Positions 4,472-5,038 of a DNA stretch of 34,875 nt are shown here, one piece after another (within the stretch, counting starts at the first letter, position 1; every line of letters starts with the position of its first letter). Under the pieces are notes generated by a model. That model did not search any database and was not told where the DNA came from. It worked only from the letters and a program-made list of their open reading frames with translations. The position numbers and the translations under genes were made by a program. The DNA is from a virus (Duplodnaviria > Heunggongvirae > Uroviricota > Caudoviricetes). The DNA lies in IMG/VR virus record IMGVR_UViG_2917413769_000004; one strand, written 5' to 3'.

Positions 4472-4502
4472 GGGGGCAGTATTGCCCCTGTGCGGGAACG
4501 CC

Positions 4503-4525
4503 GATATTAAAGGCGTTTAAGAAGG
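4503..4525 (-). promoter_or_regulatory. Candidate late-promoter motif, copy A (minus-strand reading CTTCTTAA-N4-CTTTAATATC)
   Basis: Plus strand gatattaaaggcgtttaagaagg; 20/22 identical to copy at 10319-10340; 32 nt upstream of the W-like start codon. Confidence 0.45.
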
Positions 4526-5038
4526 TTAATGGGAGTGATGATTGGAGTTCGGGCCGTCAGACAGCATGCTGCCTGTAGAGTGGGCATTGCCGTTGATTTC
4601 AAGGTTGCCGTTCACCGTGGTGGTGTCAGCGGTCAAATCAATAGTTTTTCCCTTCAGGCTGATACCTACCGCAACCTCGATTACTACGCGCTCGATACCG
4701 CCTTTGACCGTCAGCGTATGGGTCGCGCGGTTATAGCTGAACTCTGCACCATCCGCGTATTTCGTGCCCCGGACGTTTTTGTCGCTGAACGGCGGTTTAT
4801 CGACTTCTGAGTACACCGCGCCCAGAATGACACCATCCTCGCCGTTGGCATCGAGCAGCACCTCAACCTGCTCCCCCACGTCAGGGAGCCAGTAATCCTT
4901 GTTATCCTGGGTATTGCGCTGCAGCACGTTAAGCCAGTTAGTGCGCAGGTTATCGCATTCCGGCAGACGAACGCGGGCCTGAACCTTGTCGGCATCGACG
5001 GCGCTGACCGTACCGACCTGACGGGTGACACCTGCCAT
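4526..5038 (-). CDS. Baseplate spike/assembly protein V-like (Mu gp45-like)
   Basis: 170 aa; MAGVTRQVGTVSAVDADKVQARVRLPECDNLRTNWLNVLQ... gpV-type N-terminal domain. Confidence 0.8.
   Translation of the reverse strand: MAGVTRQVGTVSAVDADKVQARVRLPECDNLRTNWLNVLQRNTQDNKDYWLPDVGEQVEVLLDANGEDGVILGAVYSEVDKPPFSDKNVRGTKYADGAEFSYNRATHTLTVKGGIERVVIEVAVGISLKGKTIDLTADTTTVNGNLEINGNAHSTGSMLSDGPNSNHHSH

Follow-up and report, generated by a model that had tools for sequence, protein, structure and literature searches.

A predicted Mor/C-type late promoter in the spike-wedge gap of a BcepMu-like transposable prophage

Does the 54-nt gap (4472-4525) between the V-like baseplate spike gene and the W-like baseplate wedge gene of virus record IMGVR_UViG_2917413769_000004 give the wedge and tail-fibre genes a promoter of their own, and what does the hairpin within it do? 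The record was analyzed over its whole length of 34,875 nt (the window). An earlier note had placed a late-promoter motif in this gap and a hairpin, with a possible role in translation, in the 5' untranslated region (UTR) of W. Direct reading of the sequence confirmed the motif, the hairpin, the V-like stop codon (4526-4528), and the W-like ATG (4471). The motif adjoins the V-like stop, though it begins two bases past it, not one, and the hairpin lies between the motif and the W-like start, though it spans 4473-4488 and ends one base short of the ATG. With fair confidence, the gap is best explained from end to end as a Mor/C-type activator-dependent late promoter, hereafter P4, giving a leaderless W mRNA, with the hairpin present only in RNA that reads through from upstream. 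That P4 is a promoter appears likely, and we hold this part with good confidence. An internal late promoter is well supported because of its architecture, its copy number, the presence of an activator gene, and its deep conservation.

Promoter-like architecture and its copies

The window is a Mu-like, BcepMu-type transposable prophage. Klebsiella phage KP12 matches it at 96% identity and E. coli phage PhiKM at 88%, and the W protein of the window shares 63% identity with gp49 of Burkholderia phage BcepMu. Its gene order agrees with that of BcepMu: an early operon diverges from a late region that runs from the lysis genes to the tail fibres, with the late genes on the - strand. The early operon encodes an rve-type transposase, an AAA ATPase, GemA, and, as its final gene, an activator of the Mor family. 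The gemA-like gene stands immediately upstream of the Mor-family gene, and BcepMu gp01 carries a like annotation.

On the - strand, the gap and its borders read TAA CC TTC TTAA ACGCCT TTAA TATCGGCGTTCCCGCACAGGGGC AATACT GCCCCC ATG. A conserved upstream block, CTTCTTAAACGCCTTTAATATC, contains two TTAA half-sites separated by 6 nt, and this dyad is where a dimer of the phage's Mor-family activator is predicted to bind. The -10-like hexamer AATACT follows at a distance of 23 nt. There is no usable -35 element (positions -35 to -30 are TATCGG), and a sigma-70 scan of 3900-11000 found no -35/-10 pair at P4, returning one unrelated site only. The W-like gene has no other start codon between its in-frame upstream stop and the ATG at 4471. 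With the A of this ATG as +1, the intergenic region is exactly one promoter long.

The window holds four such sites. Repeat finding aligned 4476-4524 without gaps to 10292-10340 (49 nt, in register), with two conserved blocks consisting of the A/T-rich motif and, 19 nt on, (A/C)ATACTG. A search of the window with the full 30-mer of the earlier note, exact or with 3 mismatches, matched the site itself only. The site was then split into dyad, fixed gap, and hexamer, and the aligned pair was relaxed into the pattern TAA-N6-TTAA-N24-A-NN-CTG, which occurs 4 times where 0.01 would be expected. Every copy is on the - strand and precedes an operon-first late gene, for lysis (P1), head (P2), tail chaperone (P3), and baseplate wedge (P4). 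Their common architecture is nTAA-N6-TTAA, 23 nt, and an nAnnCT hexamer, with (T/C/A)TAA and TTAA as half-sites.

Relatives with a W homologue (45 genomic loci and 80 viral contigs, from Enterobacterales, Pseudomonas, and Burkholderia phage BcepMu) gave 62 distinct sequences upstream of W. Nearly all of these variants fit the template (T/C)TAA, N6, TTAA (TTAC in Lonsdalea), N22-24, hexamer, N6-8, ATG, with GATACT, GACAAT, CATGAT, CATTAT, and CAACAT among the hexamers. The 17 nt past the right half-site are wholly different between clades, and the G-run at the 3' end of the spacer is kept. BcepMu (gp49) and phiE255 have TTAG CCGGCT TTAA, N23, CAACAT GGCCGC ATG; Pseudomonas phage Komp_PAO1_1 has TTAA ACCCGA TTAA, N23, CATTAT TGGGCGC ATG. 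P1, P2, and P3 are conserved in relatives as P4 is, and BcepMu carries equivalent sites ahead of its holin, I-like, and chaperone genes. In Pectobacterium colocasium, V and the motif are separated by an inserted gene with a DpnII/MboI nuclease domain, and Lonsdalea (L039 6618-7000) has an insert of ~380 nt at the same junction. Since the promoter stays tied to W at a fixed distance from the ATG despite these inserts, the motif appears to mark a transcription-unit boundary. The earlier proposal of an internal promoter for the wedge and fibre genes is supported by the Mor/C geometry, the four copies, the activator gene, the conservation across genera, and the fixed attachment of the motif to W.

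Several further observations concern the same junction in relatives. The gene inserted in Pectobacterium encodes 290 aa (L033-L035 6050-6922) and is present in all three CSR2 chromosome loci fetched for this prophage family. Homology of several viral contigs ends exactly at the upstream edge of the motif. Pseudomonas relatives carry a terminator-like hairpin inside the 23-nt spacer between dyad and -10 (L045 ~6940-6965, L288 ~625-655), with the sequences GCCGCC-GCGA-GGCGGC followed by TTTCG and GCCAGG-TTCG-CCTGGC followed by TTTCT; this would be a terminator embedded in a promoter. Matching half-site changes at a second Lonsdalea promoter, which would indicate co-variation with the activator, were looked for with the pattern, which gave no such site in the loci examined.

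The design resembles that of the Mu late promoters, which have a -10 element and no -35 element; a C dimer binds their imperfect 16-bp dyad, centred at -43.5, with a footprint from -30 to -55 (PMC2582627). The consensus for Mu C is TTAT-N5-6-ATAA (PMC12867686). The four late promoters annotated in the Mu record have ATAA, 24 nt, and then TAGACT, CAAACT, TATCCT, or TAAGAT. Mu and the window both have a phage-encoded activator of the Mor/C family, -10 hexamers that lack a -35 partner, and A/T-rich tetramer half-sites that lie one helical turn from each other, flank a G+C-rich central spacer, and have their centre near -43; both also have four promoters per genome at the head of lysis, head, and tail/baseplate units. 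In both, -10 hexamers end in CT and are followed by G (TAGACTG and CAAACTG in Mu; ATACTG, AGACTG, and ATGCTG in the window). Unlike the window sites, three Mu promoters have CCCC after ATAA; Mu lacks a promoter at the matching junction, where gp45 and gp46 overlap; and none of the Mu late promoters has its start at a start codon. The closest Mu counterpart in function is PP (27287-27353, inside Mu gene 43, which is gene N), likewise an internal late promoter that gives distal baseplate/fibre genes their own transcription start, which is the kind of uncoupling that the earlier note proposed. PP lies inside coding sequence, three genes farther upstream and before the hub gene, whereas P4 fills the 54-nt spike-wedge gap and is predicted to yield a leaderless message.

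Both Mor and C are present in Mu. No second Mor-family gene was found in the window among 20 open reading frames (ORFs) scanned (26424-34474), with some small ORFs lying outside the scan. A separate middle step is probably absent here, and a single Mor-type activation step may drive all four promoters.

Table 1. Coordinates of P4, its sister sites, and associated genes and stems in the window (positions relative to W count the A of its ATG as +1).
Feature	Position	Strand	Remarks
V-like baseplate spike gene	4526-5038	-	PF04717 Phage_base_V
TAA stop of V-like gene	4526-4528	-	-57 to -55
Conserved upstream block	4503-4524	-	starts two bases past V stop
Predicted activator dyad TTAA (4520-4517), N6, TTAA (4510-4507)	4507-4520	-	-49 to -36, centre ~-42.5
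Spacer, right half-site to -10	4484-4506	-	23 nt; length kept at 22-24 nt
-10-like hexamer AATACT	4478-4483	-	-12 to -7; key A2 and T6 present
Hairpin GGGGCA (4488-4483), ATAC (4482-4479), TGCCCC (4478-4473)	4473-4488	-	
ATG of W-like gene	4469-4471	-	6 nt past -10 hexamer
W-like baseplate wedge gene	4124-4471	-	GPW_gp25, PF04965; head of W-J-I-fibre unit
J gene	3030-4133		overlaps end of W-like gene
P1: ATAA CGCGCT TTAA, N23, GATGCT	23876-23919	-	before holin/lysis operon, ATG 23850
P2: CTAA AGCAGA TTAA, N23, CAGACT	16494-16537	-	before Mu I-position (protease/scaffold) gene, ATG 16464
P3: TTAA TCCCCT TTAA, N23, CATACT	10293-10340	-	before tail assembly chaperone gene, ATG 10266
P4: TTAA ACGCCT TTAA, N23, AATACT		-	before W, ATG 4471
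Start-region stem P1: GTCTCC/GGAGAC	23842-23884	-	
Start-region stem P2: CTGTCCC/GGGACAG	16456-16502	-	
Start-region stem P3: TGCTC/GAGCA and GACAU/AUGUC	10258-10301	-	
Mor-family transcription activator gene	34055-34474	+	PF08765, E 1.2e-42; start codon uncertain

Predicted transcription start at the W start codon

The distance from hexamer to ATG is 6 nt at P4 and 6-8 nt in all 62 variants, and the start codon is ATG in every one of them. Transcription from sigma-70 promoters starts ~7 nt past the -10 element. This rule, applied to the 6-nt distance, predicts a start at ~4471 and therefore a leaderless W mRNA. A start within 2 nt of the W ATG is, in our estimate, slightly better than an even prospect. 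At all four sites in the window, a G stands after the hexamer, next comes a pyrimidine-rich run, and position 7-8 holds a purine (GTCTCCCA, GTCCCCG, GCTCTGA, and GCCCCCA), and at P4 this purine is the A of the W ATG. The 12 nt ahead of that ATG, AATACTGCCCCC, contain no Shine-Dalgarno sequence and no purine-rich stretch, and the sole G-run upstream of the ATG ends 13 nt away, inside the hairpin. W was no numerical outlier in a Shine-Dalgarno energy scan, in which the distant G-run scores; only the argument from position holds.

Differential RNA sequencing (dRNA-seq) of the BcepMu lysogen B. cenocepacia J2315 placed a primary start of BCAS0535 at -21 (PMC4603805 Table S3). BCAS0535 is BcepMu gp20, as gene lengths and coordinates map exactly, and the start corresponds to BcepMu 11243, the seventh base past TATGCT; it is the one start mapped in this phage family, and it agrees with the 7-nt rule. 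These data come from uninduced cells and have no starts at the BcepMu late promoters (PMC4603805), which fits activator dependence and is uninformative.

Among leaderless mRNAs from promoters that start at the AUG are those of lambda cI, from PRM, and Tn1721 tetR. P4 has in common with these two cases a -10 element 6-8 nt ahead of the ATG, the lack of a Shine-Dalgarno sequence, and a strict use of ATG. Known leaderless cases in bacteria and phages are mostly regulators. W differs from them in heading a virion structural operon under an activator-dependent late promoter, with a start that is predicted.

A related arrangement was seen elsewhere in BcepMu (L287 18812-18864). For gp32, the counterpart of Mu I, the start annotated at 18850 overlaps the predicted -10 hexamer GATGAT. 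The third in-frame ATG (18862) lies 7 nt past GATGAT, and a CGCCC/GGGCG stem flanks the hexamer. This suggests that the gp32 start is mis-annotated and that gp32 may be a second leaderless late gene in BcepMu.

The hairpin at P4 and alternative readings

Folded as RNA, the P4 hairpin has an energy of -11.8 kcal/mol (z = -2.84 against shuffles). AATACT, the one -10-like hexamer that is consistently conserved, covers the end of its 5' arm, its loop, and the first base of its 3' arm; from the -10 hexamer to the ATG, the G+C-rich sequence makes up the 3' arm. Because the -10 hexamer overlaps the hairpin and the start is predicted at ~4471, the hairpin would not be part of P4's own RNA; lying upstream of the predicted start, it could form only in RNA reading through from upstream. 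The overlap with the -10 hexamer, together with the ATG standing 6-8 nt past the -10 in all relatives, speaks against the earlier assignment of the hairpin to the W 5' UTR. A transcript 5' end had also been expected within 4475-4500, with its absence taken to refute a promoter. The predicted start lies outside this range, and a real promoter would be wrongly rejected on that basis.

Most Enterobacterales retain the hairpin, at -11 to -22 kcal/mol, and it reaches over the ATG itself in two loci (L018 and L044). Over 21 variants, 94.6% of cells were paired. Two positions have double changes from G-C to A-U and single changes mostly give G.U, a type of change that fits selection on the sense RNA. 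A different stem, GCGGC/GCCGC, is found at the same place in BcepMu and is like the stems flanking the -10 at the BcepMu holin and I-like promoters. That the P4 hairpin acts on read-through RNA is a tentative proposal. An Rfam search of 4300-4700 on both strands gave no match with E <= 1. The hairpin was also considered as an intrinsic terminator and rejected: it has no U-tract, being followed by CAUGAAAAC, and the terminator scan was silent at 4470-4490.

Pairing between promoter core and start region is a theme shared with the sister sites. At P1-P3, the last bases of the -10 and the pyrimidine run after it pair with the Shine-Dalgarno/ATG region of the first gene. These stems have folding z values of -2.1 to -3.3 and are kept in relatives, with variable loops. 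The minimum free energy of the full folded span is ~-10 to -13 kcal/mol, against -1.8 to -6.7 kcal/mol for RNA begun 2 nt past the -10. Ranked by folding z among 22 late genes, the four promoter-proximal start regions hold ranks 1-4 (-2.3 to -2.9), and the chance of four named items holding the top four of 22 ranks is 1 in 7315. Of 30 start regions in BcepMu, the W and chaperone sites rank second and third, and gp20, which lies directly upstream of the holin promoter, ranks first. In gp20 (L287 11229-11272), the ribosome-binding site and ATG are sequestered in a 10-bp hairpin whose 5' arm contains the mapped start. The read-through RNA folds at -18.6 kcal/mol versus -3.8 kcal/mol for the native transcript.

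Fold-back inhibition of read-through transcripts in IS10 and IS50 was reportedly described by Davis, Simons and Kleckner in 1985 and by Krebs and Reznikoff in 1986. There, the element's own transcripts begin downstream of one hairpin arm, so only incoming RNA can mask the translation start. P1-P3 show this geometry, as does BcepMu gp20, for which the start is mapped. At P4, in contrast, the predicted start comes after both arms, and the hairpin adjoins the ATG without covering a ribosome-binding site. The setting also differs, being a phage late operon instead of a transposase gene and known here from sequence and predicted folds. It is because of the resemblance to IS10/IS50 fold-back that the P4 hairpin is read as it is, with low to moderate confidence. 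A broader and more speculative suggestion is that BcepMu-like late promoters double as RNA insulators, in which part of each promoter core, from the -10 up to the start site, would form one arm of a hairpin that masks or abuts the translation start of the first gene. As this arm would be missing from the promoter's own transcript, read-through RNA alone would be silenced.

In the proposed mechanism, events at P4 would run as follows. A dimer of the Mor-family activator would bind TTAA-N6-TTAA (4520-4507, centre ~-42.5) and bring sigma-70 RNA polymerase to a promoter that has the -10 AATACT (4483-4478) and no -35. Transcription would begin at the A of the W ATG (4471) or no more than ~2 nt from it, and the baseplate-wedge/tail-fibre unit would be expressed from a leaderless mRNA. 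The GGGGCA/TGCCCC hairpin would be found only in RNA entering from the upstream tail genes, where it would abut the start codon or, in some relatives, cover it. With no Shine-Dalgarno sequence at its start codon, W would need transcripts initiated at P4 in order to be translated.

A number of points weigh against this mechanism. The half-sites are TTAA/TTAA instead of the TTAT/ATAA of Mu, and the distance from dyad to -10 is 23 nt against 24 nt in Mu, 1 bp less. The start site is placed by the usual 7-nt rule alone, and the distance to the ATG is 8 nt in Pectobacterium. In Pseudomonas relatives, a G-run directly ahead of the ATG could serve as a Shine-Dalgarno sequence, though at poor spacing. 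Hosts of the E. coli kind generally translate leaderless messages inefficiently. Lonsdalea and Pseudomonas lack the hairpin, some Photorhabdus have it only in weak form, and its covariation is modest among sequences that are related. In the literature on late promoters of the BcepMu group, we found no measured start site, footprint, or activator dependence. Regarding the first of these points, TTAA/TTAA half-sites are what would be expected for a diverged activator; they appear to count against Mu C itself, not against the promoter class.

Three other explanations were weighed. The hairpin could work as DNA, its G+C-rich arms clamping the -10 so that basal, activator-independent opening stays low, or it could have no function of its own, the G-run and the C-run each being under selection on other grounds. 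Three BcepMu promoters do have G+C-rich inverted repeats around the -10 (GCCGTC/GACGGC, CGCCC/GGGCG, and GCGGC/GCCGC), and the sister promoters have pyrimidine-rich stretches past it. We consider this unlikely: what is kept is complementarity, beyond G+C content, with different sequences by lineage; changes mostly preserve G.U pairs on the sense strand; and Lonsdalea and Pseudomonas manage without a hairpin.

In the model of the earlier note, TAATAT (4509-4504) would be the -10, transcription would start at ~4490-4500, and the hairpin would control W translation from the 5' UTR. TAATAT is a fair match to a -10 and has TAAAAT as its counterpart in P1, and the hairpin is conserved directly ahead of the ATG. 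At the same position, however, P2 and BcepMu have TTAAAA and Lonsdalea has TTTACA, and neither sequence has both key -10 bases. Use of TAATAT would leave no -35 or upstream activator site, and the sigma-70 scanner called no promoter there. The conserved nAnnCT at its fixed 23 nt, and its likeness to TAGACT and CAAACT of Mu, would go unexplained. A leader with a stable hairpin abutting an ATG that lacks a Shine-Dalgarno sequence would, moreover, hardly be translated. Taken together, these points make the model rather improbable.

Least probable is that there is no promoter and that the hairpin is an RNA 3'-end element (a weak terminator or exonuclease barrier) of the upstream tail operon flanked by the A/T-rich motif: P3 does come directly after a canonical terminator hairpin (10360-10341, terminator scan), in Pseudomonas relatives the same intergenic region does hold a terminator-like hairpin and then TTTC(T/G), and substitutions of the G.U type are a sign of RNA-level selection, but the P4 hairpin has neither a U-tract nor a terminator call, a 3'-end function could coexist with a promoter, and the model accounts neither for four in-register copies with -10-like hexamers before operon-first genes, nor for the fixed -10-to-ATG distance, nor for translation of W without a Shine-Dalgarno sequence.

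Two other features of the gap were noted. A second inverted repeat on the - strand, AACGCC/GGCGTT (4516-4511/4502-4497), brackets the right half-site (TTTAATATC); it is predicted to fold as RNA and is confined to the closest relatives. Sites for IHF or CRP at P4 were considered by eye and rejected, as neither consensus fits.

Neighbouring features and implications

Other parts of the window bear on the prophage and its expression. A pair of 76-nt inverted repeats (421-496 and 1908-1983, 97% complementary, 1411 nt apart) brackets the C-terminal region of the tail fibre and adjoins a gene at 1-429 whose counterpart in the near-identical KP12 record is annotated as a DNA invertase; the arrangement resembles an invertible host-range switch of the G-segment kind. 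A DUF2441 gene on the late strand (24226-24792) lies between the first late promoter and the repressor region, as does an opposite-strand gene (25036-25806) that is annotated in the KP12 record as a Dam-type adenine methylase. Both are probably accessory genes, and the DUF2441 gene could be a source of read-through transcription into the holin promoter region. At the other end of the window (34475-34875), a T-rich stretch past the mor stop is followed by an ORF fragment on the - strand (34633-34875, ~240 nt, to the window end), the translation of which resembles, by eye only, a host ABC-type transport permease. If this is right, the prophage seems to end just past mor, inserted in or beside a transporter gene.

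As a class, P4 would be a late promoter of the Mor/C type, and its predicted leaderless start and the pairing between core and start would be its distinctive parts. We found no description of late regulation in the literature on BcepMu-type promoters. The four sites, the TTAA-N6-TTAA operator, and the single Mor-type activator amount to a promoter map for widespread BcepMu-like transposable prophages of Enterobacterales, Pseudomonas, and Burkholderia. A leaderless first gene of a virion structural operon, if confirmed, would be unusual outside regulator genes. If the late promoters do act as insulators, translation of every late unit, lysis genes included, would require the firing of that unit's own activator-dependent promoter, and the V-W junction would be the extreme case, with a leaderless wedge mRNA whose start codon is the transcription start. 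Such masking by the promoter core would explain how prophage lysis and structural genes stay silent despite transcription entering from upstream accessory genes. The findings would also bear on the annotation of gene starts, as for BcepMu gp32, and on the engineering of tailocin and phage expression.

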